64,000 nt of DNA, taken from positions 64,684 to 128,683 of the forward strand of contig JBAYHD010000002.1 in NCBI GenBank assembly GCA_041666305.1, read 5' to 3'. Shown here in pieces: positions 6,839 through 62,702 of this stretch. This DNA comes from Minisyncoccota bacterium. Its GTDB lineage: Bacteria > Patescibacteriota > Minisyncoccia > Phycocordibacterales > Phycocordibacteraceae. Made by a program: the position numbers and the translations under genes. The notes beneath the pieces are model-generated. The model had not been told where the DNA came from. It saw nothing but the letters and a program-made list of their open reading frames with translations, and made no database searches. The stretch's first letter is position 1, and each line of letters begins with the position of its first letter.

Positions 6839-6841
6839 TCT

Positions 6842-6982
6842 ATGCCCGGTAGGACAACATGGCATCGTGTCTTTTACTCCAACTGCGATTTGCATGATAT
6901 ACAATGACAATGCACTATGAATTCAATGACTCAATTTGAAAGGCGTGACACAGAGAGTAATGCCATGTTGTCCTAACCGGGT

Positions 6983-6984
<2 letters not shown>
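6842..6984. repeat. ERIC/MITE-like intergenic element copy 1 (21-bp terminal inverted repeats, ~95-bp variable core)
   Basis: left arm cccggtaggacaacatggcat, right arm atgccatgttgtcctaaccggg (reverse complement with 1-nt bulge); second copy near 50305. Confidence 0.8.
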
Positions 6985-8443
<1,459 letters not shown>

Positions 8444-9819: not shown

Positions 9820-10440
9820 ATGGATCACATTGACGAACTTGCGACGGCACTTGCTCGACTCCCCGGCATTGGGCCGCGGCAGGCGAAACGCTTTGTTTAT
9901 TTCCTCCTCGCCACACCTGCTAGCGAGCGCACCAAACTAGCGGAGCTTATCGCGTCTCTCGGCAAAGAAGTGCGCCAATGCCCCGACTGTATGCGTTTTT
10001 ATAATGGCAGTACGGCAACGATATGCGGCTACTGTTCCGATACGAAGCGTGATGATGCGTTATTGATGCTGGTGGAAAAAGACCAGGACCTTGCGGCGGT
10101 AGAACGCGCGGGTACCTACAAAGGTCGATACTTCGTACTCGGCGGCGTGCTGATGCTTTCCGGCAAAGGCGCCATCCGAGAAAAAGAATTAGTGCACACC
10201 ATTGAAAAGCGCCTTTCTGATGGACACTCCGTGTCCATCAAATTGCGCGAGGTGGTTTTGGCACTCTCCGCAACGAGTGAGGGCGAACACACGGCAGACC
10301 GCGTGCGCGAACTTCTCGCACCCTTTCGCGACCTTTTGAAGACCTCAGAACTCGGCCGCGGCCTTGCGACCGGAAGCGAGCTCGAATATTCCGACGCCGA
10401 AACGCTCCGCGCCGCGCTCACCAACCGCAAAGAGGCATAG
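9820..10440 (+). CDS. recR: recombination protein RecR
   Basis: C4 zinc finger 'CPDCMRF...CGYC', Toprim domain. Confidence 0.9.
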   Translation: MDHIDELATALARLPGIGPRQAKRFVYFLLATPASERTKLAELIASLGKEVRQCPDCMRFYNGSTATICGYCSDTKRDDALLMLVEKDQDLAAVERAGTYKGRYFVLGGVLMLSGKGAIREKELVHTIEKRLSDGHSVSIKLREVVLALSATSEGEHTADRVRELLAPFRDLLKTSELGRGLATGSELEYSDAETLRAALTNRKEA

Positions 10441-10455
10441 GCACGAAACAGAAAA

Positions 10456-10498
10456 GCCTCACACGAAGGGGCCGTGTAGGCTTTCCCGTGTGAGGCTG
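10456..10498. terminator. hairpin between convergent recR and nucleotidase genes
   Basis: agcctcacacg ... cgtgtgaggct 11-bp stem. Confidence 0.5.
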
Positions 10499-10502
10499 AG
10501 TC

Positions 10503-11087
10503 TCAGATGCTTCTGACAACTTCGAGAATGTCGTTCCATGAATGCACCCTGTGCATGTTTTGCTGACAGAGCACACTATTGTAATTCCATGGAGCATCAA
10601 AGAGCAGGGCCTTACTCACAACCGGCGCGACATTTTCGACATAATGAATAGCATCGTCGACAAACACTTGCACGCCGAGATGGTGACACAGTTGCCTTTT
10701 CGTCATGCTCCCATCTCGATGAGCATCACTTCGCGCAAAACAGATAGAGTCCACAAGCGATGGAAAGTATTTCATAAGGCATGCCCGTGTCTGAGGTTTC
10801 GTGTTACTTGGCCGAGAGGTGATCACAACAACCTCTGCCCTGCTTTGAAGCTCGCGAACTGCCTCAACGGCACCGAGAATAGGAGCAAGCATCTCGTGCT
10901 CGGGCGAAACAAAGAATTCATCAATTCTCTTCGTCATCTCCCTACGGGAACAACTCCATAACATATCAAGACTGTAGGTGTGGACATCATCTCTCGTAAG
11001 TGCCGTGCCATACCGACGGTTATGGAATAGCTGCACCGCGGATTGACAATCCACGAGTACGTCGTCAAAATCAAGGCCAATAATCAT
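10503..11087 (-). CDS. HAD-superfamily 5'(3')-deoxyribonucleotidase-like protein
   Basis: 'IGLDFDDVLVD' DxDxV HAD motif I at the N-terminus; the ORF-track N-terminal extension (to 11204) runs through the REP palindrome and is probably not translated. Confidence 0.55.
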   Translation of the reverse strand: MIIGLDFDDVLVDCQSAVQLFHNRRYGTALTRDDVHTYSLDMLWSCSRREMTKRIDEFFVSPEHEMLAPILGAVEAVRELQSRAEVVVITSRPSNTKPQTRACLMKYFPSLVDSICFARSDAHRDGSMTKRQLCHHLGVQVFVDDAIHYVENVAPVVSKALLFDAPWNYNSVLCQQNMHRVHSWNDILEVVRSI

Positions 11088-11149
11088 GTCAATCCTCCTG
11101 GTGGGTTCAAGTCTGCCGCGACTATACCACGGGTGATTATTCACTCCCA

Positions 11150-11174
11150 ATGAAAGGTTTACGAAACCTTTCAT
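11150..11174. repeat. REP copy 1, 25-bp palindrome atgaaaggtttacgaaacctttcat (inverted orientation)
   Basis: near-perfect palindrome; the asymmetric centre (tacg vs cgta) defines orientation. Confidence 0.85.
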
Positions 11175-11183
11175 GTATACTGG

Positions 11184-11879
11184 TTGTTGATGGAACTCTG
11201 GCACGTTCTTAATCGGGGTGTTGAGGGACGCAATCTATTTCTCGATACGCAGGATTACGCTCGCTTTGTACACGATCTCTATGAATTCAACGACACCGCA
11301 TTGGCTACCAATCGCTGGCGTTCCTTTGACCTGTCAGGAATGAAAGGTTTCGTAAACCTTTCATTCCGAGAAACGCGGAACTTGCTGGTGGATGTTCATG
11401 GGTGGGTGTTGATGAAGAATCACTACCATTTGCTGTTATCAGAACGAGTCGAAGGTGGTATTAGTCTCTTTCTACGCAAGCTGAACGTAGGGTATGCCAA
11501 CTACTTCAATCAAAGATACGGACGGAAAGGAACCCTCTTCCAGGGCCGGACGAAGAAGATTTTGATTAATCGTCAGGCGCACTTTCTGTATATCCTTCAC
11601 TATATTCATCTCAACCCGCTTGATTATCTACCGGGTGCCGATGATTGGCGCATACGGAGTAAAAGCGTCATTAAGAATGCGGGTGAAGCATTCAATTTTC
11701 TTGACTCGTACCGCTGGAGCAGTTATTTAGACTATATCGGGCAAAAGAACTTCCCTTCTATTCTCAAAACTTCCCTCTTCAAAGGATCTCTCGGCGATTA
11801 TCGGGAATCGCTTCATGAGTATCTTAACGACGCCGAACAAGACAGCGATAGTAGTATGGAACAGTCGATTTTGGAATGA
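11184..11879 (+). CDS. REP-associated tyrosine transposase (RAYT, IS200/IS605 Y1 HUH family)
   Basis: 'HVLNRG..GRNLF' N-terminal strand, HUH motif 'NHYHLLL', 'GYANYFNQRYGRKGTLFQGR' catalytic-Tyr helix region, RAYT hallmark 'YRWSSY'. Confidence 0.8.
   Translation: MLMELWHVLNRGVEGRNLFLDTQDYARFVHDLYEFNDTALATNRWRSFDLSGMKGFVNLSFRETRNLLVDVHGWVLMKNHYHLLLSERVEGGISLFLRKLNVGYANYFNQRYGRKGTLFQGRTKKILINRQAHFLYILHYIHLNPLDYLPGADDWRIRSKSVIKNAGEAFNFLDSYRWSSYLDYIGQKNFPSILKTSLFKGSLGDYRESLHEYLNDAEQDSDSSMEQSILE
11340..11364. repeat. REP copy 2 (forward orientation), in-frame inside the RAYT ORF
   Basis: atgaaaggtttcgtaaacctttcat, extended to the 31-bp palindrome ggaatgaaagg...cctttcattcc. Confidence 0.85.
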
Positions 11880-24878: not shown

Positions 24879-27800
24879 TTATTGTTTGAGAGTGCGGACA
24901 AAGATGCTCAAGTCGGTGACATCAACTTTTCCGTCGCCGTTGAGGTCGTCAAGTATGCGAACGGCCGTATCGGACGAAGAGAAACGCGAGAGGAAAATAC
25001 TCCAGTCCTGCACATTGATCACGCCGTCCTGATTGAAGTCGGTTTGCGGGGTGAGCAGTGTCGTCACATTGAACACCTTTTGGGGAGTATAATCGCTCTT
25101 CGCTCCAATGGGAGAAATTTGGCGTACACGGACGGTATGACTGCCGAGCGCGAGCGTACCGGTCGGGAGGAGCATTTTGTACGAACCGTCAGATTCGACG
25201 GGCGTTTCTGTAGGAATGGAAGTGCCATCAATTTCAGCTTCGACAGAATACCCGGGAATCGCCATTCCTACGAAACCAACCACATCATTTTGGCGGACGG
25301 TCGGATGCACGAGGCCCAAGGTCGGCGAAAGGAGACCGGCATCGAGATGGATGACCGGATTATTGCCTGAGTAACCCGCGTTGAACACTACGGTCTGGGT
25401 CGTGCGGCCGAGCGAGTCAATTCCAACAACGCCGTACGAACCGAGTCCGACCTGAATGTTTTTCAGCAACATCGAGAAGGCGCCGTTCGCTGCAGCGGTC
25501 GTCTGCGCCTGCAGTATCGACCCTTTCGGCGATACAGAGAGAACTTGTATTTTCGCGCCCGGAAATGCCAATCCCGAAAGTTGCTCGCCAATAACAATCG
25601 TTATTCCGGGAGCAACGGCGGTGGCGCTTACGCCCGACGACGGTGCGACAGGAGTTGCCGAGAATGTGATCTCCTGCGTCGAAGACACGTCGAGGTTCGT
25701 CCCTTCACTGTCAGACAGCGAGAGAGTCACTGTTTCGGGAGAAGTGTCCTGTAAGGACGCCGTTCCAACGCCGTTAACCATGGTCACGAGTCCGGCGCCG
25801 GTCGCCGAGCCAGTCACCAGGAGCGTCACGCCGGATTGGATCGTGGTGTCCACATTGCCGGAATTATCTTGCGCTTCGATGGTCACTGTTGCCGGCGTTC
25901 CGACCTGAACGGTCGAAGGTGGCAGAATGACGAAACGAGTGGCGACGATTGGTATCGTGCTCACCGTCACTGAATCAACAGCATCGAGGATGCCGGTGGA
26001 ACCATTCGGCGCGCCCGAACTGTCAGAAGCAGTGACCAGCCAGGTGCCGGGCTCTGCGTCGTAATACCAGAAATCGCCTGACGAATTGCCGTCATTGATA
26101 GTAGCGAAGGCTGTCGGTGCTCCGCCGACTGCCGCTGAATAAAATGCGGTTGTCGTCCCCGTCGAAGATGAACACAGGTACGCGAGCGTCACGCCCGCGG
26201 TAGTGGGATTATTGAACTGATCTTCGCGGGTCACGGTGTATCCGAGGCGCGTGCTGACTGTCATATTGCCGGGATCATTCAAGAGGAATTTCGCGACAGC
26301 GGCCGGCTGAATAGTAATCGCATCACTCGCATCGGCTACGCCCGCGCTATCCGGCGCGCTCGAGCTATCAGACACCGTTATGTACCAGTCGCCCGCTTTC
26401 TCATCGTATGCCCAGAAGCTGATTGCTGAAACGCCATCCGGAATGACAATGGATGTAATTGCGCTGCCACCGCTCGCGGCGTCATAGAATTTTTTGTTGA
26501 CGCCATCGGAGGTGCTATAGAGATACGCCGTTGTTGCGCCGGCCGTGACCAAATTTCCGTACTGATCTTTACGACTGACGGTGTATCCGATCCTCGCTCC
26601 CGCCGCCACGTCTCCGGGATTATTAAGCGCGAATTGCGCGACCGCTCCGGCAGCGAAGGTCACTCCTTGAGTCGAAGACACGTTAAGATTTGTCGTTTGA
26701 CTGTCAACAAGTGACAGCGTGACGACTTCAGGAACCGTATCGGATATCGGGATCGTTCCGACACCGCTTGCAATGGTCACGAGCCCTCCGCCAGTCGCCG
26801 TGCCGCTTGTGTTGAGCGTCACTCCGATATTTTGAGTGGTGTCCACATTGCCGGAATTATCTTGTGCCTGCACCGTAACGGTAATCGGCGCGTCAACGGT
26901 ACCACTCGTCGGAGGAAGTATCACAATGCGTGTCGCGACAATAGGAGCCGCGGTAACCCCCACCGAGTCGGTAGCGTCAGCGACGCCGCTCAATCCATCT
27001 GGGACGGATGGATTATCAGAAGCGGTCACGGTCCATGTCCCGAGATTTGAATCGGCATACCACACTTGGGCAGATGACTGGCCGTCCGGAATGGTGATTG
27101 AAGTGATCACCGTGCCGTTCGTATCAGCGTCATAGAACGCAGGAGTATCGACTCCGGTCGAATTGCTATACATATATACCGTTGTAGCGCCGTCAGTAAC
27201 TAGGTTATTGAATTGGTCCTTTCGAGTCACGGTGTAGCCAAGGCGCGTATCGGCAGTCATGTCGCCCGGATTATTGAGCGAGAAAGAGGCAACCGAACCT
27301 GCAGTCACCACAAGAGAGTCGGTGGCATCGTTGATGCCGGTGTTGCCGTCCGGTGCAGATATATTATCGGAAGCGGTCACAGTCCATGTTCCCGGCAACT
27401 CGTCGTAATACCAGACATCCGCCGTTGATTGACCGTCACTTATGGTGATTGAAGTTATTTCAGTGCCGTTTATCGCGGCATTATAAAATTTCTTATTCAC
27501 ACCGGTCGATGAACTGTAGAGATACACGACATTTGAACCGAGAGAACTCACATTGCCGTATTGGTCTTTGCGCGTAATCGTGTATGCCGCACGCTCGCCC
27601 GCAGCCAATGTTGCTGGGTGATTGAGCGTGAACTGTGAGACCGTTCCGCCGGCAAACACAACTGACTGCGTCGACGAAACATCCAAGCCGGTACTCTGTG
27701 AGTCAGTCAAAGAGAGATCCACGGTCTCGGCAACCGTATCTGAAATGGATAGTGTTCCAACACCGTTGATGATATCTACCAATCCTCCGCCGGTAGCGGA

Positions 27801-30326
27801 ACCGGTCGTGTCCAAGGTCACGTCATTTTGATAATTCGTGTCCACACTGTTGTCGGGCTTTTGTGCCTGCACAGTGACCGTGATAGAAGCATCCACCGTG
27901 CCATTCGTCGGCGGTAGTATGACGAATTTCGTAGCGACCGGGTTTACGACCACAGAATCGGTCGCGTCAGCAATGCCGGTATTACCGTCAGCATTCGGAG
28001 TGGCATCAGACGCCGTAATGGTGTAGGTCCCCGGCGTCTCATCGTAGTACCAGAAGTTGGCTGTCGAGTAGCCGGGAGCAATATCGATGTAGGTAATCTC
28101 CGAGCCGGCGAGAGAATCATCGTAGAATTTTTTCGTACCGCTTGAGGAGTTGGAATAGAGATAGACTCTGTTTGTTCCCGTACCAACCGCGTTCCCTGAA
28201 AAATCGTTTCTACTCACGGTATACCCGAGCCGGGTTCGGGCGTACATATCTCCCGGATTATTGAGCGAAAAGGACGTAACGACTCCACCGGTCACGGTAA
28301 AGGCGGCAGAGGTACCGGTCTTCGTCCCTCCGTTGTCGGTTGCGGTGATGGTCTTGCCGGAACCAGCTGTTGTCACCGTCACACTTTCCGTGCGTTCACC
28401 TGATACGAAGGCGCCGGACTCCGTGGGCGCGATGGTGCCTGCGGTTGTAGAAAGATCAACAGTGCCTGAATATCCGGTCACGGTGTTGTTGTTCACGTCC
28501 TGCGCCATAATCGTTATGTTGAACGGGGTACCGGCTGCTTGGGTGGTGATTGCCGCGAAAGAGAAATGATCAAGAGCACCGGGATTCACGGTGAACGTCG
28601 AGGAGGTGCCGGTCTTCGTTCCTCCATTATCGGTAGCGGTGATGGTTTGAAGAGTGCCGGCCTGCGTAACGGTCACGCTTTCGGTACGCACACCGGAGCT
28701 GAAGGCACTCGATTGCGTCGGCGCGATGGTGCCTGCAGTCGTCGAGAGATCAACGGTGCCCGAATAGCTGGCCAGTGTGTTGTTATTCACATCCTGCGCT
28801 GTGATGGTGATGTTGAAAGCGGTACCGGCGGTCTGTGTTCCGATAGCGGCGATGGCAAAGTGATCAAGGGTGCCGGCAGTAACGGTGAATGACTGATCCA
28901 CATCTGCAGCGGCGTTGTAGTTGCTGTTGCCGGATTGCGAGGCGCGAATGGTGCAAGTGCCCGTAGAGACAAGGTGGACGGTTGCGGTACTCACAGTACA
29001 GACGCCGGTCGTTTGCGACGAGAAGGTGACCGTGAGGCCGGATGAGGCTGTTGCGCTGACCGCGAAGTCGGGATCACTGAGCGTCTTGTCCGAAAGTGCA
29101 CCAAACGTGATGGTCTGATTCGCCGTATTGATGACGAAGTTCCCTGCCGAGGCGCCCGTCAAACTTTTATAACTCGTGGTGTCGGTCGGCGTGAAGTTGG
29201 CGGTGACGGCATAGGTGCCGACGTTGGTCTGCGTTGCAACGCCACCCGTAAGGATATTGCTTGCCGTACCCGGTACAGAACCCGAGACTGTGGCAGCTTG
29301 TCCGGAGCCATTGTAGGTGACAGGAGAATTCGTCACCGAAAGAGTCGGTGTCGCGCGAGTATCGTTCGTAACACTCAACATGCCAGTCGTTGCTGCGAAA
29401 TAGGTGTTGTTTTGATGAGTTGCCGTGGAGCTTGTTGAACCCCATGTGCCATTGATGCGGCCGAGACCGCCGAGCGTCAGATTTGCTACCGTCAGTGTAA
29501 GCCCGGCCCCGACACTTGCAGTCACCGAGCCCGTCGGTGCAATGCTCATCGTGCCGCTAACCGAAGTTCCAGTTACCATCGTCGCCGCACCGCTTCCAGA
29601 GAGCGTGAGATTCACATAACTGGCGGGCTCGATCGCTTGCGCTGAACCGTTATAATTAATTGTGTTTCCGGCTCCGGTTGCGGTGAGCGTGACATTAGCA
29701 GATGGCGTAAATGCCCCATTGATATTGAGCACAGAACTCGCACCTTGCACCCATATGGCAGTGCCGCTCGTTCGTGCGTAATTGCCATTCAGAGTAACGG
29801 TCCCATTGTTTGTAACTGTTTTCCCCGGAGAATTAATATTGTTGTTGATCGTTATATTTGCGGTGGAAGAAAAGGAGAAATTTTGGGTTACCAATATACT
29901 CGTATCTATCACTCCACTCCCATCGATAGTTTTTCCAGCGGAGTTCGATTTAAGAATCCCCGATGTCCCAGTAATTGATCCGTTGACCACAACGTTTCCG
30001 TTTTCCGTAAGCGTAAACGCACCGGCAAAGTTCAAAATAGCGCCAGAGTTTACGGTAAGACCGGCATTTGTTTTATTCGCACTGATAGTCACATTATTTC
30101 CGCCGGTCGTCGCAATAATGACACTGTCGGCATTTGCGGGAACCACGCCACCAATCCATGTTGACGCCGTAGCCCAATTGCCTCCGGTCGCAGTACTTGT
30201 CCTTACTGCAGCAAATGCGGTGCTTGCACCACCGAGCGTCATCAGCATCGTTAATGCGAATACAAAACTATACCTGCCGACTCTTGCGAACAAGGAGAAG
30301 AATGCGAGGCGGTGGTTGGTAGTCAT
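24879..30326 (-). CDS. giant surface adhesin-like protein with beta-helix N-terminus, ~6 tandem ~100-aa Ig-like modules and C-terminal dockerin
   Basis: signal peptide; Thr/Gly/Asn-rich beta-helix repeats; repeated module '...VYLYS.S.G..K.FYD....G..ITSI.I.DG.S.A..WYYD..PGTW.VTASD'; C-terminal 'DFNQDGVINVQD...DLNGDGKVDVTD' duplicated Ca-binding dockerin segments. Confidence 0.8.
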   Translation of the reverse strand: MTTNHRLAFFSLFARVGRYSFVFALTMLMTLGGASTAFAAVRTSTATGGNWATASTWIGGVVPANADSVIIATTGGNNVTISANKTNAGLTVNSGAILNFAGAFTLTENGNVVVNGSITGTSGILKSNSAGKTIDGSGVIDTSILVTQNFSFSSTANITINNNINSPGKTVTNNGTVTLNGNYARTSGTAIWVQGASSVLNINGAFTPSANVTLTATGAGNTINYNGSAQAIEPASYVNLTLSGSGAATMVTGTSVSGTMSIAPTGSVTASVGAGLTLTVANLTLGGLGRINGTWGSTSSTATHQNNTYFAATTGMLSVTNDTRATPTLSVTNSPVTYNGSGQAATVSGSVPGTASNILTGGVATQTNVGTYAVTANFTPTDTTSYKSLTGASAGNFVINTANQTITFGALSDKTLSDPDFAVSATASSGLTVTFSSQTTGVCTVSTATVHLVSTGTCTIRASQSGNSNYNAAADVDQSFTVTAGTLDHFAIAAIGTQTAGTAFNITITAQDVNNNTLASYSGTVDLSTTAGTIAPTQSSAFSSGVRTESVTVTQAGTLQTITATDNGGTKTGTSSTFTVNPGALDHFSFAAITTQAAGTPFNITIMAQDVNNNTVTGYSGTVDLSTTAGTIAPTESGAFVSGERTESVTVTTAGSGKTITATDNGGTKTGTSAAFTVTGGVVTSFSLNNPGDMYARTRLGYTVSRNDFSGNAVGTGTNRVYLYSNSSSGTKKFYDDSLAGSEITYIDIAPGYSTANFWYYDETPGTYTITASDATPNADGNTGIADATDSVVVNPVATKFVILPPTNGTVDASITVTVQAQKPDNSVDTNYQNDVTLDTTGSATGGGLVDIINGVGTLSISDTVAETVDLSLTDSQSTGLDVSSTQSVVFAGGTVSQFTLNHPATLAAGERAAYTITRKDQYGNVSSLGSNVVYLYSSSTGVNKKFYNAAINGTEITSITISDGQSTADVWYYDELPGTWTVTASDNISAPDGNTGINDATDSLVVTAGSVASFSLNNPGDMTADTRLGYTVTRKDQFNNLVTDGATTVYMYSNSTGVDTPAFYDADTNGTVITSITIPDGQSSAQVWYADSNLGTWTVTASDNPSVPDGLSGVADATDSVGVTAAPIVATRIVILPPTSGTVDAPITVTVQAQDNSGNVDTTQNIGVTLNTSGTATGGGLVTIASGVGTIPISDTVPEVVTLSLVDSQTTNLNVSSTQGVTFAAGAVAQFALNNPGDVAAGARIGYTVSRKDQYGNLVTAGATTAYLYSTSDGVNKKFYDAASGGSAITSIVIPDGVSAISFWAYDEKAGDWYITVSDSSSAPDSAGVADASDAITIQPAAVAKFLLNDPGNMTVSTRLGYTVTREDQFNNPTTAGVTLAYLCSSSTGTTTAFYSAAVGGAPTAFATINDGNSSGDFWYYDAEPGTWLVTASDSSGAPNGSTGILDAVDSVTVSTIPIVATRFVILPPSTVQVGTPATVTIEAQDNSGNVDTTIQSGVTLLVTGSATGAGLVTMVNGVGTASLQDTSPETVTLSLSDSEGTNLDVSSTQEITFSATPVAPSSGVSATAVAPGITIVIGEQLSGLAFPGAKIQVLSVSPKGSILQAQTTAAANGAFSMLLKNIQVGLGSYGVVGIDSLGRTTQTVVFNAGYSGNNPVIHLDAGLLSPTLGLVHPTVRQNDVVGFVGMAIPGYSVEAEIDGTSIPTETPVESDGSYKMLLPTGTLALGSHTVRVRQISPIGAKSDYTPQKVFNVTTLLTPQTDFNQDGVINVQDWSIFLSRFSSSDTAVRILDDLNGDGKVDVTDLSIFVRTLKQ

Positions 30327-30476
30327 GAGGGTGTAAAAATAATGGTATCTGCATATAATATAGAGCAATTCAGCCATTGTTTTTGCCATTTCGTAAAATA
30401 TGTGTGGATAGTAAGGATGGAATGCGCATGCTCATGTATGGCATGACGGGCGAAAGTCTGGTATAAAAATAGGTAC

Positions 30477-30549
30477 GGCCTCATCGTCTAACGGCTAGGA
30501 CAGATCCCTCTCACGGATCAAATCGGGGTTCGATTCCCCGTGAGGTCAC
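30477..30549 (+). tRNA. tRNA-Glu (anticodon CUC)
   Basis: cloverleaf folded by hand: acceptor GGCCUCA/UGAGGUC, D arm GUC..GAC, anticodon stem GAUCC/GGAUC with loop CUCUCAC, T arm CGGGG-UUCGAUU-CCCCG, discriminator A. Confidence 0.85.
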
Positions 30550-30556
30550 CCGCAAG

Positions 30557-49781: not shown

Positions 49782-50315
49782 ATGAAAGAAATCGTGCAAG
49801 ACGGCGCGAAGGTGCTCCGCGATATCGCTAAGCCGGTGCCGAAGGAACTGTTCGGCTCAGTGAAGCTCGCACGCATAATTGTCGACATGACCGAGGCGCT
49901 CGACCAAGAACTCGAGGGCGTCGCGCTCGCTGCGCCACAGATCGATGTTCCCCTTCGGATTTTCATCGTGCGCAAAGATCGTACTCTGCCTCCTCCGGCA
50001 CAGGTTCCGGAAGGGGCGCCGCTTCCTCCTCCCCTGCCGGCGGAAGTGGAGGTATATATCAATCCGGAGATTGTTAAGACGTCTCGCCGACGCGCACGCG
50101 CGGACGAGGGCTGCCTTTCGGTTCGCGGTGTCTATGGCACCACGAAACGGCATGAGCGCGTTACCGTTCGCGCGCAACACCCGGACGGTAAATCATTTCA
50201 GCGCGGCGGCGGCGGCATCATGGCGCAAATCTTTGAGCATGAAATTGACCACTTGAATGGCATTCTTTTCATAGACCACGCCGAGCACCTCATCGAGATA
50301 CATCATGCCCAGTAG
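49782..50315 (+). CDS. def: peptide deformylase (with ~30-aa Pro-rich insertion)
   Basis: motifs 'GVALAAPQI', 'EGCLSV', 'HEIDHLNG'. Confidence 0.9.
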   Translation: MKEIVQDGAKVLRDIAKPVPKELFGSVKLARIIVDMTEALDQELEGVALAAPQIDVPLRIFIVRKDRTLPPPAQVPEGAPLPPPLPAEVEVYINPEIVKTSRRRARADEGCLSVRGVYGTTKRHERVTVRAQHPDGKSFQRGGGGIMAQIFEHEIDHLNGILFIDHAEHLIEIHHAQ

Positions 50316-50445
50316 GACAACATGGCATCATGTCTTTGCCGCTTATAAACGGACGCGGTACAACTAGAATTATGAACACAACGAGGCAACCGCAGGCAAC
50401 TACCTCGGACACGCAGGGCAATGCCATGTTGTCCTCACTGGGCAT
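50305..50445. repeat. ERIC/MITE-like intergenic element copy 2
   Basis: arms gcccagtaggacaacatggcat / atgccatgttgtcctcactgggc; the def stop TAG lies in the left arm and the candidate fmt ATG abuts the right arm. Confidence 0.8.
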
Positions 50446-51307
50446 GCCCCAACCGCATAACCCAGAACATTCGCAGACGAATGAACGGGCGCAGAGCCGT
50501 TTCGCATACTTCGGCACGCCGAACGTTGCAAGCGAAACGCTTGCAAGGCTCATTGAGCATGGTTTCATTCCCGAACTCGTCGTGACGTCACCGGACGCGC
50601 CGAGGGACCGCGGCCACGTGCTCACGCCATCGCCCACGAAAACGCTTGCGCTCTCGCGCGGCATCAAGGTGCTCACGCCGGCGCGTCTCGACACAGAGAC
50701 GATAGCAGAGATACGCGCGTGCAAATGCGATTACGCGGTCGTCGTTGCGTACGGCAAAATATTTCCTGAAGAATTGATCCAATCATTTCCGCTCGGCGTG
50801 CTGAATGTGCATTACTCGCTCTTGCCAAAATATCGCGGCGCAACGCCGCTTGAAGCCGCACTCCTCGCAGGAGAAAAAGAGACCGGCGTGACCATACAAA
50901 AGATGGTGAAAGAATTGGACGCTGGCGACATCATTGAGCAGAAAGCGACCGAAATAGAATCCGACGAAACCGCGCGCGAACTGAGGCCTCGACTTATCAT
51001 CATAGGCGCTGAACTATTGGCTGAGGCACTTCCTCGTTTCGCGGGCGGTTTTATAACACCGGTCCCGCAAGATGATTCAAAAGCGACGCGCGCGGGAAAA
51101 TTAAAAAAGGAAGACGGTCTCCTCTCATTCGACGCACCGGCCGAAGAGAATTGGAACAAATATCGCGCCTATGCCGACAGTATCGGTACGTATTTTTTTG
51201 AGAATGGAAAACGAAAGAAAATAACAAAAGCGTCGTTTACGAACGGAAAGTTCGTCGTTGAACGCGTCATTCCCGAGGGAAGAAACGAAACGGATTATCG
51301 CGGCTAG
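50443..51307 (+). CDS. fmt: methionyl-tRNA formyltransferase
   Basis: 'RFAYFGTPNVA' N-terminus, 'HYSLLPKYRGA' formyltransferase motif, C-terminal domain; the ORF-track start at 50330 lies inside the repeat and is probably too long. Confidence 0.85.
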
Positions 51308-52380: not shown

Positions 52381-52411
52381 GAAACCGCCCTCAGAAGGGC
52401 GTTTCTTTTTG
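52381..52411. terminator. bidirectional rho-independent terminator downstream of tRNA-Asn
   Basis: gaaaccgccct-caga-agggcgtttc flanked by A-run and T-run. Confidence 0.7.
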
Positions 52412-52419
52412 ATCCTCGG

Positions 52420-52714
52420 CTCCGCGGGTAGGATTCGAACCTACGACCAACTCGTTACATCTTGTCCGCTATTACTAACGGGATGGACTATATCATCACC
52501 GGTTCTCGGTGCGAGGCGCTTCGACCTCTCGGTCTACTCCCTTGCGGGATAGTCTCTGAACCTTTCTCGAAACATTTCGGGACTTGGCTGCTGATTGCCC
52601 GCGTCTTTCTCGTTTGGGTTTCCAGCAATTCACCTCGTTCTTCATTCCCGAATTCCTTCGGGAAGCTGCGTTTCTTGGCCACAGCGAGCCGCTCTACCAC
52701 TGAGCTACCGCGGA
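52420..52714 (-). tRNA. tRNA-Asn (anticodon GUU) interrupted by a group I intron in the anticodon loop
   Basis: exons 52681..52714 and 52420..52457 join to UCCGCGGUAGCUCAGUGGUAGAGCGGCUCGCUGU|UAACGAGUUGGUCGUAGGUUCGAAUCCUACCCGCGGAG, a complete cloverleaf that parallels E. coli tRNA-Asn and has discriminator G. Confidence 0.8.
52458..52680 (-). ncRNA. group I intron (223 nt, ORF-less)
   Basis: conserved elements in order: P 'aauugcuggaaa', Q 'aaucagcag', R 'guucagagacua', S 'auauagucc'; 5' exon ends in U pairing with an internal guide GCAGC (P1); terminal omega-G. Confidence 0.8.
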
Positions 52715-52766
52715 AGGTAAACACCGATTAATGTAACCGGCTTATGATCAGTATACACAGACATAT

Positions 52767-53147
52767 GTGGAAAACAACATTAACACTAAGTGTTATACTG
52801 TGAGCGTGGAGAAAATTTGCAAGATTCATGGATTAACAAAGTTCTTCCCTAGAACAGAAGGGTGGTATCGCTGTGGAAAGTGCGCCTCGGTAGCCGTCAT
52901 ACAAAATCGCAGACGTAAAAAAGAAAAATTGGTCGAATTATTTGGTGGGAAGTGTTCAATCTGTGGATATAGGAGGTATGTGGGGTCATTAGATTTTCAT
53001 CATATGGATCCGAAAAACAAATCCTTTGCTCTCAGTGTCAAAGGTCTGTGCTATTCATGGGGTTCAATTCTCAAGGAAGCTGAAAAGTGTGTTTTAGTTT
53101 GTAAGAATTGTCATGCAGAAATTGAAGGCGGCATTACAAAGTTATAG
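52767..53147 (+). CDS. free-standing HNH endonuclease (AT-rich, likely homing-endonuclease-like)
   Basis: Zn-ribbon 'CGKC...CSICG', 'LDFHHMDPKNK', 'CKNCH' HNH motif; ~38% GC against a ~57% background. Confidence 0.7.
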   Translation: MENNINTKCYTVSVEKICKIHGLTKFFPRTEGWYRCGKCASVAVIQNRRRKKEKLVELFGGKCSICGYRRYVGSLDFHHMDPKNKSFALSVKGLCYSWGSILKEAEKCVLVCKNCHAEIEGGITKL

Positions 53148-57646: not shown

Positions 57647-57973
57647 CTATTTTTTCGTCGTCGTTGCTCCCGGAGCTGCGGTGTAGGCCCAGTTGCTCAT
57701 CATGCCCGGTCCGCTAACGTAATAGGTTTGTGCCCTATTGCCGGCGTATCCGCTCATCATGCCGTATCCATAACCGCCGCCGTAATACGCATTGCGGATA
57801 GCGCTTTTCAACTCTCCGAACTGGACGCCACACCAGAAAATGAAAAGTGCGACCGCTATCTTGATGATGATGTGCATCCAGTGATGCTGTGCGCACATCC
57901 CTCCTCCCATCCAACCTTTCTCACACATCGAACATCCTCCCTTCATGTCTTTATCCATACATTTTTTGTTCAT
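57647..57973 (-). CDS. small Cys/His/Met-rich membrane protein with Gly/Tyr/Met-rich tail
   Basis: 'CMDKDMKGGCSMCEKGWMGGGMCAQHHWMH' then a TM helix then 'GGGYGYGMMSGYAGN'. Confidence 0.45.
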   Translation of the reverse strand: MNKKCMDKDMKGGCSMCEKGWMGGGMCAQHHWMHIIIKIAVALFIFWCGVQFGELKSAIRNAYYGGGYGYGMMSGYAGNRAQTYYVSGPGMMSNWAYTAAPGATTTKK

Positions 57974-58065
57974 TACATTTTATGTTTTCAGTATACTCTA
58001 TCCCACATGCATAAGAAAAACCCCGGTCAGTTGAGACCGGGGCTGTCACACGTAATCCGTGTCAA

Positions 58066-59787
58066 TTACTTGGCGGATTGGGTCCGCTTCCGTAAGTTGA
58101 ACGCCGGGGAGACGTGGAACAAGAACGAGAGGGGGCGCAAAGCTTCATCGAAGGCATATCGCAGTACGTCTTCGTTTTCGGCCGGCATCGCTTTGAGCGT
58201 GAGCACATACACCGCAACCGTCTCCTGCAATTGCATGACCTTGCGGTCCGACACATCGCAGGCGACCCAGATGGGATGATTGACGTTGAAGTGCAAGATA
58301 CCCTGACGGGCATCGAGTTCCCAAAGCCTATCGGAGCCATCCATCGCAATGTACGAGAACTGCAGCCCGACGCTGTCGTTCTTCACCAGCATCCGCTGCT
58401 TGCCGCGAGGGCCGGCAACGGTATACGGGTGGTGATTGGGTTTATCCTCGCGCGGCTTTTTGTGCTCGCCAGAACTCCCACCGCCTCCTTCTTCTCCCTT
58501 CGGGGTAAACCCTTCATGGGTGGAGATAGAGGATTCGGTCTGTTGACCGGTCACACTGCCCCTTACAGGCTTCGTGTGACCGATACCCACCGTGCCGAGT
58601 TTGAAGTCCTGCAGCACCAAACGGATGTCGTTGAAAGCCGGGTCGCGCAGCATCGCTTCGATCTCTCGTAGCGACTGTGTGCCGAGCTCCTGATACCGCT
58701 GGTCGCGCCGGGCCTCTTTCACGTCCTTAAGGTGATCGGCTCCGTGTTTATGGAACCATGCCTCAAGTGCGGTACAGAAGCCGACGAATGCATCGTCCTT
58801 CTCGAACGTTTTACGCGTCGAATGGAGCTTCACCTTCTCGCCGACGATCTCGCCTTCGAACATGCCGGAGCGTAATGCAGCCGACACTTCGTCCGAGAGC
58901 AAGCTGTCAGCCGAGCGAGCGAATAGTCCAAAACTGAAGCGGTAGTCGTTATCGAGCTCGCCGACGATGACCTTGCCGTTCTGGCCTTTAGTCGTCTTCG
59001 GTGCAAGATACATGCGGAAGACGACATTGCCGGCATCGCGGTCGGTAATGACCGTTTCGCCGAGCGAACGCCCGGTGAAGAGCTTCGCACGAATACCGTC
59101 GCGTTCTTCGAGTGTGCCGTCCTCATTGGTGAACCTGATGCTGAGGACAGTCTTGTTGCGGCGCATGGCTGCGCCGAAACGCTCGAGAATAGCATCCACA
59201 AGCGCGTCGATCGACGTGACTCTCGAGATGATCCTGTCGCTCGAATAGCGGACAATATTCACCTCAGTGCGCCATGCGATGCTCGTCATTCCCCGCTTCA
59301 CGTTCAACCCTTTGCGGGAAAACACGAGGTCTGGCCGAGGCCGCCGCGGAACGAAGACGCTCTGTTGCTGCCTCCGGATATCCTCGGTGACAAAAGTCCA
59401 TTCCATGTACCCATCCTCGATGCCACGCGCACAAGAGATGAAAGTGGAGGAATGGCATTTGTCGAGCGGAGAGATGAGTCCGATGCCGAAGCGACCGAGC
59501 TTGTTCAGCTCCTTCTGCGACAGGCAGACCTGTTGCAGCGCTTCTTCGAATTTCTCACGGCTCACGCCGTCGCCGTCATCGCGGATAGCGATGTGGCGGG
59601 TCTTGCGGTTAAGCACGACCGAGATGTTCTTTGCGTTCGCGTCGATCGCGTTCTGGACCTGTTCCAGGATGACGTCGAGTACGGTCGGATAATCCGATGC
59701 AACTCGACAGAATGCTTCTCCCATGTGGAACCCGAGAAGCGAATGCGTGCTCTTCGGCGGTCTTGCGTTGAGTATTGCGTTCATCAC
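58066..59787 (-). CDS. GHKL (Bergerat-fold, HATPase_c_3-like) ATPase with ~420-aa uncharacterised C-terminal region
   Basis: N box 'EQVQNAIDA', G1 'IRDDGDGVS', G2 'GRFGIGL'; not MutL, GyrB, Hsp90 or a histidine kinase (no H-box, no dimerisation domain). Confidence 0.7.
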   Translation of the reverse strand: MMNAILNARPPKSTHSLLGFHMGEAFCRVASDYPTVLDVILEQVQNAIDANAKNISVVLNRKTRHIAIRDDGDGVSREKFEEALQQVCLSQKELNKLGRFGIGLISPLDKCHSSTFISCARGIEDGYMEWTFVTEDIRRQQQSVFVPRRPRPDLVFSRKGLNVKRGMTSIAWRTEVNIVRYSSDRIISRVTSIDALVDAILERFGAAMRRNKTVLSIRFTNEDGTLEERDGIRAKLFTGRSLGETVITDRDAGNVVFRMYLAPKTTKGQNGKVIVGELDNDYRFSFGLFARSADSLLSDEVSAALRSGMFEGEIVGEKVKLHSTRKTFEKDDAFVGFCTALEAWFHKHGADHLKDVKEARRDQRYQELGTQSLREIEAMLRDPAFNDIRLVLQDFKLGTVGIGHTKPVRGSVTGQQTESSISTHEGFTPKGEEGGGGSSGEHKKPREDKPNHHPYTVAGPRGKQRMLVKNDSVGLQFSYIAMDGSDRLWELDARQGILHFNVNHPIWVACDVSDRKVMQLQETVAVYVLTLKAMPAENEDVLRYAFDEALRPLSFLFHVSPAFNLRKRTQSAK

Positions 59788-60590
59788 TATCTCCCTTTCT
59801 GGTTGCTGGTTGCTGCTGGATTTGAGTGCATCTCGCGCGCCCGCTCACCGCATAAACGGTAGAGCAGGTTCGCCAGGGTGAACACGCTATTGTTGCCCGC
59901 CAATTCGCGAACCTGCGTTCGCTCTTCGGCAGTGAACCCGTCGGAGCTGACCATCTGCGCGAGCGGTATCAGCGCCTTCACCGACCCCGCGAGGGATGCG
60001 ATGATCGCTTCATGCTCGCTTTGCGAAGACTTCTTCTGCAAAGGAGCCGCCGCACGCACGGGAACGTTCGCTTCTACGCGCGCCGGAGGCGCTTGCAGTT
60101 TGTGGTCGCTCGTACTTCCGGTGATGTTGACCCGAACCGTACCCCGTTGTTTCTCGGGAATCTGATCTTTGTAGAGCTCAGCGAGTGTCGCAAACTTCTG
60201 CATTCTTTTATTCGGGACACTCTGCTTGCCGTGGAATACACGGTACAGTGAGTCGGTACCGACCCTTCCTTCTTTCGGATAGCCAACGAGGTCGACTATC
60301 TCGGTAAGAGAAAGGATGCGGAATGCATATATTTGCGCGACGTCACGTATCGGCGGCGATAACACCTCAAGCTCCGTGATCTCATAACCATGGAGTTCGA
60401 GATAGAACATCAGCCGCGTGAGCGATTCTCCCATGGGCTTCACTCTCCCGTTAAACCAGCGACGCACCGTTTGTTCCCCGACGCCGGTAAATGCGGCAAC
60501 TTTCTTGTGCTTGTCGGTTGGGGCTTCCCCGGGCACTTGTGCGAAATGCGTGAGGCATTTCGCAAAGCTTCCTTCGAAGATTGTTGTCAT
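59787..60590 (-). CDS. XRE-like helix-turn-helix protein, partner of the GHKL ATPase
   Basis: 'VAAFTGVGEQTVRRWFNGRVKPMGESLTRLMFYL' HTH; 1-nt overlap with the downstream gene. Confidence 0.6.
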   Translation of the reverse strand: MTTIFEGSFAKCLTHFAQVPGEAPTDKHKKVAAFTGVGEQTVRRWFNGRVKPMGESLTRLMFYLELHGYEITELEVLSPPIRDVAQIYAFRILSLTEIVDLVGYPKEGRVGTDSLYRVFHGKQSVPNKRMQKFATLAELYKDQIPEKQRGTVRVNITGSTSDHKLQAPPARVEANVPVRAAAPLQKKSSQSEHEAIIASLAGSVKALIPLAQMVSSDGFTAEERTQVRELAGNNSVFTLANLLYRLCGERAREMHSNPAATSNQKGR

Positions 60591-60886
60591 GGCGTGTTCC
60601 TTTCTATGTGCTGTTTGCTCGTGGGTATGACCGGAAAAGCCAAAGTGGCCCGCCAGCCATGTCGGAAAAGTGCAACATTGCGAAGCTCAACAACTTGACC
60701 GTGATTCAATCTCTGACCTTTGCCATGCCAGTTAGACAAGGAAAAGGTGATGCTGTCGCTTTTTTTGAGCTCGCCGTAATCTTCTGTCGAATAGGCAACG
60801 GCGTAGCTCCCCTCCGCTGATTGGCGATTGACGATGTTTTTGACCGTCGCACGCACAGGCGGATTTGAACCTTGCTTTTTACTCAT
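60587..60886 (-). CDS. small protein, first gene of the three-gene operon
   Basis: 99-aa ORF with 4-nt (ATGA-type) overlap with the HTH gene. Confidence 0.4.
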   Translation of the reverse strand: MSKKQGSNPPVRATVKNIVNRQSAEGSYAVAYSTEDYGELKKSDSITFSLSNWHGKGQRLNHGQVVELRNVALFRHGWRATLAFPVIPTSKQHIERNTP

Positions 60887-60951
60887 TGCTATTTCCCTCT
60901 CGTTATCAAGGAACGGGCTGTTCCGCGGGATAGAATAGCACGATAAGATGA

Positions 60952-61626
60952 TTATGTCAATCGGTGTTCGGCCTGTTGGATAAGAGCGTAATCACGCGGG
61001 AATAGGCGCTTACTGATACCGAAAATGCCGTATGCCATGAACGGCGCGGCAAGCACATCAATGGAGTAATGGATGTGGGCGAGGAGCACGGCAACACCGA
61101 ACACGACAGACAAAGAAAGAAACACCATCCGCGCGGTACGGTGGTCCCAGAAAACGAGCGCCATCAAGAATGGCAAGCCGGTATGCCCGGAAAAGAAGAA
61201 CCCGAGCTGGAAATTAAGATAGGAATAGATGTCAGCAAAGAATCCGGAACCCGGGTCGATATGGGTGGGATAGACGCCCACGTGCGTGAGAGAGATGAAT
61301 AGCGCCCGGATTATGATAAAAAGGGCCAGTGCCTTGAGCGCAAAGAGAATGTGTCGCGGTTTGGAGAGCACATAGAGCGTGCCGAGGACAATGGAGAGGA
61401 ACGCTCCCTCAATGATAATGAGATTCAGGTCGACTGCCGGGAGATTGTCGAGAAAAAGATCGCCGACATATGACGAGGTGGGGCGCTCCGAATATGCGAA
61501 CGCGTATATATTGGCGTAGTGCTCGAATACATATGCAGAACCGAGCATGAAGAACGCGGTCAGGAGCGAATACAATTCGCCGTCGCAAAATATGTCCTTG
61601 TAGCTGAACGAGTCTCGTTGAGGCAT
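60952..61626 (-). CDS. PAP2-family membrane phosphatase
   Basis: 'SGHTG' and 'HYSIDVLAA' PAP2 motifs 2 and 3, six TM helices. Confidence 0.7.
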   Translation of the reverse strand: MPQRDSFSYKDIFCDGELYSLLTAFFMLGSAYVFEHYANIYAFAYSERPTSSYVGDLFLDNLPAVDLNLIIIEGAFLSIVLGTLYVLSKPRHILFALKALALFIIIRALFISLTHVGVYPTHIDPGSGFFADIYSYLNFQLGFFFSGHTGLPFLMALVFWDHRTARMVFLSLSVVFGVAVLLAHIHYSIDVLAAPFMAYGIFGISKRLFPRDYALIQQAEHRLT

Positions 61627-61937: not shown

Positions 61938-62147
61938 ATGCAAAATGGTACCGTAATCAAAAAGAACGAGAAGGGCTTCGGCTTCATCAAAGTCGACGGA
62001 GCACCAGAAGGTTCTAAGGACCTTTTCTTCCATTCCAACGAGCTCAAGAACATTTCGTTCGACGAGCTCCAGGAGGGAGCAAAGGTTACGTTTGAGATCG
62101 GCGACAGCCCGAAAGGCCCGAACGCTCTCAACGTCAGCACTATCTAA
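61938..62147 (+). CDS. cspA: cold-shock protein
   Basis: '[28 protein letters not shown]' RNP1/RNP2 cold-shock domain; long 5' leader. Confidence 0.85.
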
Positions 62148-62163
62148 GCAATTAGATAAGGCA

Positions 62164-62203
62164 AAGAAATCGCCCCGCTAAAAGCGGGGCGATTTCTTTT
62201 GCT
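62164..62203. terminator. bidirectional rho-independent terminator
   Basis: gaaatcgccccgc-taaaa-gcggggcgatttc then TTTTG. Confidence 0.75.
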
Positions 62204-62600
62204 CGGCGCATTTTGCGCAACGGCAACCGAACGGCTTGATGTGTTCATCAACATATTCCTTGCCGTAGTCGTAGGTGAATTCTTCGCCTGGTTTGATGGC
62301 TTTGGTGGCGTCGATGTAAATATGCCCGCGCTCAATTTCCGGCTCGCAGTTCGGCCGGCAGGAATGGTTGATGTAGCCGGCGATGTTCATCTTCGGCTTG
62401 CCATCAATCGTTTTCCTCTTATTCACCTCAAACAGATACTTGCTCTTGCTTGAATATTCTTCTGCGGTTGGTATGACGCGGCCGACATACTCAATAACTC
62501 GTTCTCCCTTCTTGTAGGCGCGCGTCGCGAAAAGGCCGAGTCCGGCGCTCGACCTCCCCACCCGAACTCCCTCGGGGTATTTTGATTTCTTTGTGTTCAT
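62178..62600 (-). CDS. SET-domain protein (putative lysine methyltransferase) with post-SET Cys cluster
   Basis: 'GLGLFATRAYKKGERVIEYVG', 'NIAGYINHSCRPNCE', 'FTYDYG', 'CRCAKC'. Confidence 0.75.
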   Translation of the reverse strand: MNTKKSKYPEGVRVGRSSAGLGLFATRAYKKGERVIEYVGRVIPTAEEYSSKSKYLFEVNKRKTIDGKPKMNIAGYINHSCRPNCEPEIERGHIYIDATKAIKPGEEFTYDYGKEYVDEHIKPFGCRCAKCAEQKKSPRF

Positions 62601-62702
62601 ATAGGCCTGCCCCGTTTCACTTCTCCTCAATATGGAAAATATACGTTAGCGAAACTCGAACGCTGGTATTCTGAAAGTGATACGGGGTATACTAGATATA
62701 TC

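Follow-up and report, generated by a model that had tools for sequence, protein, structure and literature searches.

In a 64,000-nucleotide (nt) stretch of a Minisyncoccota genome (contig JBAYHD010000002.1, hereafter the window) we find a minus-strand gene cassette whose conserved core is a pair of genes: B, encoding a protein with weak but consistent signs of a helix-turn-helix (HTH) domain, and A, encoding a GHKL ATPase with a predicted Hsp90-like fold, preceded here by a third, small gene, C. The B-A pair is abundant, accessory, entirely unannotated and found only in Patescibacteria, the candidate phyla radiation (CPR), and the cassette is an autonomous, dispensable module that is present in some relatives and absent from others. 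We tentatively read it as a conflict-type accessory module (probability roughly 0.35), in which an ATP-driven dimeric clamp would work with, or be held in check by, its HTH partner.

Distribution, linkage and turnover of the cassette

All three open-reading frames (ORFs) lie where a preliminary description of the window, made from the sequence alone, had placed them (Table 1). A and B are real genes rather than chance ORFs, as homologous clusters exist in databases for both (87 and 457 for A, 16 for B). C and B overlap by 4 nt (ATGA), as described there, and the 1 nt overlap it gave for B and A corresponds to one of two possible starts of A: the G that ends the B stop codon TAG also opens a GTG at 59787, and an alternative ATG lies at 59784 with a Shine-Dalgarno-like GGGAG ca. 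7 nt upstream, so that A begins at -1 nt or +2 nt relative to the B stop and coupling is tight either way. The public gene call for A begins at M22 (552 amino acids, aa), but residues N-terminal of M22 (S..L.FH) are conserved among A homologues and the long start is therefore right. ORF positions and the Pfam match described below agree on a translationally coupled operon containing a GHKL/HATPase_c_3 ATPase, again as first proposed, and the coupled genes, with a promoter-like site ahead of C and a terminator-like hairpin behind A, make the trio a self-contained transcription unit. The promoter-like site matches the consensus at 10 of 12 positions; such matches are not commoner than in shuffles, so its position is the main argument, and TTGACA...TAnnnT boxes are also present upstream of the cassette in related loci.

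In the first of the two databases consulted, homologues of A form the 87 clusters, whilst in the other the A family comprises at least 457 clusters at 50% identity (e-value ≤ 1e-30); proteins of the family are ca. 540-600 aa long, the best 150 of these 457 being almost all of 520-630 aa, and the architecture is uniform across at least 150 representatives. Scanning one genome per species (185,579 species genomes) returned 55 loci, 54 of them with an A-family protein, and the ca. 57 loci found in all belong to Patescibacteria by title or by synteny, with titles such as Paceibacterota, Parcubacteria, Saccharibacteria, Microgenomates and Magasanikbacteria. The A family is thus restricted to this group. 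Eight loci are titled "uncultured Gammaproteobacteria bacterium" (L019, L025, L028, L030, L033, L052, L053 and L057; L numbers designate loci throughout), which we treat as wrong taxonomic labels or mis-binned contigs because L025 and the Parcubacteria locus L054 are collinear (54-66% identity in the flanks) and L057 has an A fragment that matches its counterpart in the Paceibacteria locus L050 at 100% identity. A myxobacterial match (L058) was set aside, its GHKL protein being unrelated and ending in a metallopeptidase-like tail.

Profiles on six-frame ORFs place B immediately upstream of A, in the same orientation, at 56 of 57 loci, the sole exception being a locus that begins too near a contig end, and the distance from B stop to A start ranges from -4 to +30 nt in independent gene calls. 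The expectation that all three genes travel as a unit holds for B and A but not for C, which occurs in only the ca. 20 nearest loci, and the conserved unit is therefore the B-A pair. Divergence between relatives falls in the order C > B > A (C 53% in its only database relative, B ~50%, A ~75%), as expected for a controller or adaptor with an enzyme, and B evolves faster than A in every compared pair. In deeper pairs of loci A is less conserved than the flanks (42-43% vs. 54-66%).

Two related metagenome contigs, collinear with the window in the flanks (~75-80% identical), lack the ca. 2.9 kb cassette, which bears out the earlier suggestion of an inserted module. In one (L064) only ca. 110 nt separate the start of the downstream 108-aa gene from the PAP2-like gene's stop, against ca. 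2.98 kb in the window, and in the other (L065) the 108-aa gene is missing too. As the absent segment runs from terminator to promoter, it is the entire transcription unit that is gained or lost. The G+C content of the cassette is ~0.57 (58000-60250) against 0.48-0.53 in the immediate flanks; as similar values occur elsewhere in the window (e.g., 50000-50750), G+C alone is no evidence of foreign origin. A phage or prophage origin was considered and rejected, there being no relatives in IMG/VR and the PHROG matches covering only the GHKL head.

Predicted architecture of the three proteins

Protein A matches Pfam HATPase_c_3 (PF13589) over residues 38-139 only (e-value 6.9e-15, 55.7 bits against a cut-off of 25), and carries the GHKL motifs first noticed in the preliminary description: an N box EQVQNAIDA (42-50), G1 DDGDGV (70-75) and G2 GRFGIG (98-103). 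Across 216 family members E42, N46, D49, D70, G72, G74, G98, G101 and G103 are 96-100% conserved, which places A among the GHKL proteins; outside this domain R325 and W344 are both 100% conserved, and R465, N501 and H504 in the C-terminal domain are near-invariant. Taken together, the conserved motifs and these five residues point to an active ATPase with functional sites beyond the ATP-binding domain. The rest of A was said to hold no recognisable domain, and with sequence methods this is so, no match extending past the first ~140 residues. With NCBIfam and PADLOC the matches are confined to the GHKL core of ~70-110 residues and fall far short of family cut-offs, the sub-threshold matches being to the sacsin ATP-binding domain (the best in NCBIfam, 38 bits against a cut-off of 50), MutL, BbrUII, MzaB and Tiamat TmtA; an A-family profile compared with the PDB recovered MutL, MORC2, PMS2, HtpG and sacsin over its first ~100 positions only, and hhalign against Escherichia coli HtpG gave 96% probability over residues 21-115 only (95 columns). 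No Pfam HSP90 match was found, the NCBIfam HtpG model scored 11.9 bits against a cut-off of 371, and a profile of the middle region matched no solved structure among PDB sequences. The isoelectric point (pI) of A averages ~7.9, the N-terminal and middle domains being mildly basic (~8.4-8.5).

An AlphaFold model of A, built on 29 homologues, has a predicted local distance difference test score (pLDDT) of 84.7. All of its top 50 Foldseek matches in the PDB are Hsp90-family chains (Hsp90, TRAP1, HtpG and GRP94), mostly with ~390-450 aligned columns and e-values down to 7e-13, at TM-scores of only 0.32-0.39, and in the predicted structure a GHKL N-terminal domain is followed by an alpha/beta middle domain, as in the three-dimensional architecture of Hsp90. 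Against a viral library the best matches of the model were giant-virus proteins, Hsp90s, RIIA proteins and type II topoisomerases. Because the sequence profile aligns only residues 21-115 with HtpG, and that of the middle region matches no structure, the Hsp90-like middle domain is proposed at the level of predicted fold and not as a family assignment. The statement that A lacks an Hsp90 middle domain is accordingly correct by sequence and not by fold, and the picture of A as a bare MORC-like head gives way to a predicted fold closest to the N-terminal and middle domains of Hsp90. R325 lies in the motif LHxxRxxFE ahead of a long helix and would be the gamma-phosphate sensor of A. The C-terminal domain matched no family in Pfam, PADLOC or NCBIfam and may be a dimerisation or effector domain. 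A Shedu-like nuclease or His-Me finger in this domain was rejected for want of a family match, and on our reading of the alignment the pattern of R465, N501 and H504 fits neither D...(D/E)xK nor H-N-H.

For B, the XRE-type HTH of the preliminary description finds concordant Cro/C1 signals from four independent methods, each of them weak: HTH_3 matches residues 29-60 below its cut-off (e-value 0.0014, 19.1 bits against 23), profile matches in the PDB to a Listeria XRE protein (e-value 0.014) and the P22 C2 repressor (0.11) fall on residues 20-69, Foldseek finds C.BclI with probability 0.95 but an e-value of 0.3, and PHROG transcriptional regulators match with e-values of 0.006-0.17. B is probably a Cro/C1-type HTH protein. 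Its AlphaFold model (pLDDT 79.9) falls into the four parts listed in Table 1; across 54 family members W45 and G54 in the first are 94-96% conserved, and the conserved C-terminal bundle may bind a partner. A zinc or redox site formed by C12, H15, C247 and H255, all invariant in close homologues, was rejected, these residues being only 22-78% conserved family-wide.

C was described as an orphan, and this did not stand, as its family is found in ca. 20 related loci of the nearest subclade, directly upstream of B, and is absent from the others. Its conserved motifs are SITFSL...W.G...GQVV.L...RGWRA, and neither Pfam nor PHROG yields a family match. In L034 C lies ~1 kb upstream of B, and in L036 the sole copy, closer to the first C type, is on the opposite strand (6799-7071, -). 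A second C paralogue type, with the motif GSITF...GWRAG.GR, occurs beside the cassette in L001 (3910-4155, +), L020 (6393-6692, -), L032 (6490-6762, -) and L055 (6428-6730, -), on the same strand in L001 and divergent in the other three. These arrangements hint that C-type proteins form a small family of their own with some autonomy from B and A, and within the cassette C is an optional, lineage-limited extra.

Possible roles of the pair

As a conflict-type module the cassette would work as follows. A would act like other GHKL clamps (Hsp90, MutL, MORC), as a dimer that its C-terminal domain holds together and whose N-terminal domains close once ATP binds, the gamma-phosphate being sensed by R325. 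B would bind a palindrome in the operon's own promoter region, contact A through its C-terminal bundle (R224, R228), and either direct the clamp to DNA or hold it in an inactive state; it would thus be the upstream, faster-evolving controller and A the ATP-driven sensor or actuator, the output coming from the C-terminal domain of A or, in one subclade, from C. The module might then serve in defence against phages or mobile elements, or in the manner of a toxin-antitoxin pair. We rank this role first because the pattern of gain and loss, the patchiness, the coupled controller-first gene order and the divergence gradient C > B > A all fit it, and also because the literature reports accessory HATPase_c_3 proteins, GHKL ATPases of the same kind, from restriction and defence settings (PMC2292703, PMC12137116). 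The strict adjacency of B and A, the intact motifs of A and its invariant residues outside the GHKL domain, its Hsp90-like predicted fold and the HTH signals of B also speak for it. It draws further support from the nearest sub-threshold matches of A in defence-aware libraries, which are TmtA, a type II restriction enzyme, MzaB and BbrUII.

A number of observations weigh against a conflict role, and gene context gives no backing to the defence-like character suggested in the preliminary description. Housekeeping genes predominate among the 88 nearest neighbours (26 loci), with no enrichment of known defence genes, which led us to reject a defence-island context, and the few scattered PADLOC matches among them look like SMC/RecN-like and Lon-like cross-matches. 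Several lineages keep the B-A pair at one stable, housekeeping-flanked site; no integrase or transposase adjoins the cassette, and a tRNA-linked island was also rejected, tRNA genes standing on both sides only in L004. No relatives of A were found on IMG/VR viral contigs, and in close syntenic pairs of loci A is as conserved as the flanks (94-95% vs. ~96%). PADLOC-DB v2 returned no system-level match and nothing at all for B or C, and no effector domain (nuclease, toxin, membrane or other) could be recognised in A, B or C with Pfam, PADLOC, NCBIfam or PHROG. Defence families usually shuffle their domains, and the uniform architecture of A across the representatives compared sits poorly with such a role. 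Finally, the contact between B and A, the dimerisation of A and DNA binding by B are all inferred. We hold it somewhat doubtful, and less probable than the general conflict reading, that the B-A pair (with C in one subclade) is an unrecognised CPR-specific immune or addiction system, in which an Hsp90-like clamp would carry a new kind of effector in its C-terminal domain (R465, N501, H504) and the tandem-HTH protein would be its sensor or brake.

A serious alternative, which we consider about as doubtful as that specific immune system, is a chaperone-type regulatory switch: A would be a specialised Hsp90-like ATPase with B as its client, and ATP-driven remodelling would set DNA binding by B in a self-regulating stress or signal circuit, by analogy with DnaK-HspR or GroEL-HrcA titration rather than with conflict systems. 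This would account for the fold matches, in which Hsp90, TRAP1, HtpG and GRP94 take all top 50 places over the N-terminal and middle domains and viral Hsp90s appear too, for the strict, translationally coupled pairing with a transcription-factor-like protein, and for the uniform A architecture, the inheritance of the pair at a stable housekeeping-flanked site in several lineages and the lack of an effector domain. A few loci have GroES/GroEL within 3-5 kb, but these are only 4-6 of ca. 57 and may reflect lineage synteny. The HtpG profile comparison, however, aligns the ATP-binding domain only (the 95 columns above), Pfam HSP90 gives no match, and the patchy distribution and empty sites in close relatives show the pair to be dispensable. 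Canonical Hsp90s are acidic, and the mean pI of A also speaks against this switch.

A MORC/MutL-type DNA clamp seems less probable still. Here B would recognise DNA sites and load A, which would close around or compact DNA with ATP and so silence or organise particular regions, either of foreign DNA or of the chromosome. In favour of such a clamp are MutL, PMS2 and MORC2 as the closest PDB sequences to the GHKL core, the mildly basic N-terminal and middle domains, the obligatory HTH partner and, in A, the conserved strand at the N-terminus, the long helix and the C-terminal domain, yet by fold Hsp90 ranks above MutL and MORC, neither of which is among the top 50 matches, A gives no sequence signal of a MutL C-terminal or S5 domain, and the neighbours scanned show no restriction-modification linkage as in prokaryotic MORC/paraMORC (PMC2292703).

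Very unlikely, in our estimate, is a kinase-substrate pair in which A, as a GHKL protein kinase, would phosphorylate the repressor B (e.g., in its Ser/Thr-containing linker) and so de-repress transcription, like CapK-CapS or SpoIIAB-type anti-sigma kinases, with C acting like BldB of the Streptomyces BldB-WhiJ-AbaA triads: the kinds of component equal those of BldB-WhiJ-AbaA loci (PMC10294661), a GHKL enzyme beside a repressor follows CapK-CapS logic (PMC13373217) and B has a disordered linker, but no residue of that linker is conserved, C lacks a DUF397 match and B a STAS or DUF5753 match, HATPase_c scores 23.0 bits, below its cut-off, against 55.7 for HATPase_c_3, and A, at 573 aa and with its Hsp90-like middle domain and invariant Arg loop, differs from AbaA and CapK, which are described as anti-sigma-factor-like HATPase_c proteins (PMC10294661, PMC13373217). 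Each of the three alternatives fails at least one feature tested for family membership and is offered as an analogy.

CPR bacteria make up a large share of bacterial diversity and have tiny genomes, with fewer recognised defence systems per genome than other bacteria; CRISPR is rare amongst them (PMC6509639), and little is known of their defences and regulation (PMC12259885, PMC6509639). As an immune or addiction module the pair would bring a lineage-specific system and a new use of an Hsp90-like clamp; as a chaperone-regulator switch it would be a rare instance of a dedicated Hsp90-type ATPase tied to a single transcription factor. Either way the family is well defined and offers clear targets for point mutants (E42, N46 and R325 in A; R224 and R228 in B).

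Coordinates, neighbours and other features of the window

Table 1. Features of the cassette, with positions in the window and residue numbers of the encoded proteins.
Feature	Position	Strand	Remarks
Gene C	60587..60886	-	99-aa protein, no known domain, optional component
Gene B	59787..60590	-	267-aa HTH protein (weak HTH signals, AlphaFold model, adjacency to A)
B residues 1-78	60357..60590	-	First predicted five-helix Cro/C1-type HTH domain; recognition helix around W45
B residues 79-152	60135..60356	-	Second predicted five-helix domain, packed behind the first; helices 79-89, 95-102, 110-119, 127-139, 143-150; pLDDT >90
B residues 153-189	60024..60134	-	Variable linker, predicted disordered; pLDDT <50 at 159-188; poorly conserved
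B residues 190-256	59823..60023	-	C-terminal three-helix bundle (predicted), conserved; R224 and R228 invariant in 54 sequences
Gene A	58066..59787	-	573-aa GHKL ATPase, Hsp90-like predicted fold
A, conserved N-terminal strand	residues 13-22	-	Precedes Bergerat domain
A residues 23-190	59218..59721	-	Bergerat-fold ATP-binding domain; E42, N46, D49, D70, G72, G74, K92, G98, G101, G103; HATPase_c_3, hhalign HtpG
A residues 191-330	58798..59217	-	Predicted alpha/beta middle domain (fold match); ends in loop LHxxRxxFE with invariant R325
A residues 331-395	58603..58797	-	Predicted 49-residue helix and short helix; invariant W344
A residues 427-454	58426..58509	-	Gly/Ser/charged linker, predicted disordered; pLDDT <50 at 427-445; length and sequence variable
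A residues 455-566	58090..58425	-	Predicted C-terminal domain of beta-sheet and helices; near-invariant R465, N501, H504
Promoter-like TTGACA-17 nt-TATTCT, TG-extended	60932..60960	-	Overlaps stop codon of upstream PAP2-like gene
Inverted repeat GGAAC-N5-GTTCC	60910..60924		Between -10 box and ribosome-binding site of C
Intrinsic terminator-like hairpin and T-run	58019..58044	-	10-bp stem, 7 G-C pairs, 22 nt after A stop
Segment absent from related contigs L064 and L065	58021..60979		Flanking genes adjacent there

The inverted repeat occurs once in the 64-kb window, where 0.07 are expected by chance. L004 has AGGAAC-N7-GTTCCT at the equivalent position and other related loci have palindromes at the same place, mostly of different sequence, and the repeat may be a candidate operator or a hairpin in the 5'-untranslated region, on weak grounds.

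The neighbours of the cassette in the window encode PEBP, YkuD, cupredoxin-like, PAP2-like, SET-domain and F420-ligase-like proteins; an exact-sequence look-up of the PAP2-like protein gave no match. Just downstream lies the gene for the 108-aa Cys/Met/Gly-rich protein (57647-57973, -), with one hydrophobic segment and no Pfam family, whose presence in L064 and absence from L065 is a second presence/absence difference at this site. Also nearby are a 150-aa bacterial SET-domain protein (62178-62630, -; Pfam SET, e-value 1.7e-23) and, adjoining its gene, a cold-shock-like ORF recognised by eye only (~61940-62147, +). Elsewhere the pair has no conserved neighbours, no family being common to more than 9 of 55 loci, and is found beside genes for P-type ATPases, tRNA synthetases, ribosomal proteins, GroES/EL, FtsH, release factor, MreB, FtsA, Lon and topoisomerase. 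In L004, a Minisyncoccia relative whose A is 74% identical, tRNA-Val and tRNA-Arg genes (6705-6780 and 9846-9918) enclose the cassette exactly, and in L002 its surroundings include a cyclodipeptide synthase (CDPS), a GIY-YIG protein and a reverse transcriptase (RVT_1) (1011-2044, 10444-11739), the most accessory-looking neighbourhood of all those seen and one that does not recur.

Further from the cassette, a group I intron (Rfam RF00028, 78.5 bits, e-value 3e-18; 52465-52732 by Rfam) interrupts a minus-strand tRNA gene (52410-52714) in its anticodon region. ARAGORN missed this tRNA on the raw sequence and found it after in-silico removal of the intron, its anticodon depending on the exact splice site. 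An adjoining 126-aa ORF (52767-53147, +) has CxxC...HH...CxxCH motifs, seen by eye, that are typical of HNH endonucleases, and may encode an intron-associated homing endonuclease. The only tRNA called by ARAGORN on the raw window, tRNA-Glu CTC (30477-30550), adjoins a very large ORF of 1,836 aa (24879-30389, -).

Comparison with known systems

The preliminary description could place the trio in no named defence system, and our searches agree, PADLOC and NCBIfam matching only the GHKL core far below cut-off; the best PADLOC match of A is TmtA (e-value 1.4e-08), over residues 36-104 and against a profile of 1,486 positions. It had likewise seen no MutL or histidine-kinase signature in A. MutL (TIGR00585) indeed scores 31.4 bits against a cut-off of 180, over residues 38-85 only, and PDB MutL matches cover only positions 31-83 of the A profile; for a sensor histidine kinase, no HisKA match was found, the GHKL domain is N-terminal, and HATPase_c falls short of its cut-off of 26.4 bits. 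We therefore reject A as a MutL, a canonical Hsp90 paralogue or a sensor kinase, all of which score below cut-offs in alignments limited to the GHKL head. Curated libraries name none of A, B and C beyond a generic GHKL domain, and full-text literature searches on GHKL proteins in Patescibacteria and on HATPase_c_3 with HTH proteins in defence turned up no account of this family.

With the Hsp90 family (HtpG, TRAP1, GRP94), phage RIIA and sacsin, A shares a Bergerat domain with all motifs; the predicted fold of its N-terminal and middle domains is closest to Hsp90, RIIA and viral Hsp90s being among the best viral fold matches, and judged by sequence an invariant Arg loop followed by a long helix may stand at the position of the Hsp90 catalytic loop. 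Unlike Hsp90, A has no sequence similarity past about residue 140, its disordered linker comes before the C-terminal domain and not after the N-terminal one, that C-terminal domain is unrelated by sequence, and the protein is obligatorily paired with an HTH protein, accessory and CPR-restricted.

MORC/paraMORC, Shedu type I-D VcSduA, MzaB, Tiamat TmtA and BbrUII/HgiDII resemble A in having a HATPase_c_3-type GHKL head and an accessory, patchily distributed gene, although the TmtA, MzaB and BbrUII models match this head weakly, over ~60-110 residues and far below family cut-offs, and no match to Shedu, or to DUF4263, the C-terminal PD-(D/E)xK nuclease domain of Shedu type I-D, was found with Pfam or PADLOC. 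Another likeness is a clamp-like middle region, proposed to control an output domain (PMC12137116), and prokaryotic MORC/paraMORC combine GHKL with an S5-fold module and are linked to restriction-modification genes (PMC2292703). Unlike these, the cassette shows no restriction-modification or defence-gene neighbourhood among the 88 neighbours scanned.

The Streptomyces loci of BldB (DUF397), WhiJ (XRE HTH, ~270 aa) and AbaA (HATPase_c) unite three kinds of component that the cassette has too, a small protein, an HTH protein and a GHKL-fold protein (PMC10294661). No homology was detected, however, C and its paralogues having no DUF397 or other Pfam family and B no Pfam family above threshold; A is a 573-aa, HATPase_c_3-type protein with an Hsp90-like predicted fold rather than an anti-sigma-factor-like HATPase_c, and the cassette is a single-copy core pair and not a large paralogous family. 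[quoted passage not shown] The adjoining genes of a GHKL-fold enzyme and a DNA-binding protein are common to both, but neither the anti-sigma-kinase-like domain of CapK nor the STAS-like domain of CapS is found in the cassette, which ends in a terminator and has no downstream immune operon.

Type II toxin-antitoxin systems with an XRE antitoxin (e.g., HipBA) share with the cassette an upstream HTH gene coupled to a larger downstream gene, an HTH protein whose C-terminal domain could bind its partner, and autonomy with presence/absence polymorphism. In contrast to their toxins, A carries no known toxin domain, is better conserved than B and has a uniform length, and several lineages hold B-A at a fixed housekeeping site. 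The cassette thus combines components of known kinds, a GHKL clamp and a Cro/C1 HTH protein, whilst the pairing of B with A, its restriction to one lineage and the two-thirds of A outside the GHKL domain are new.

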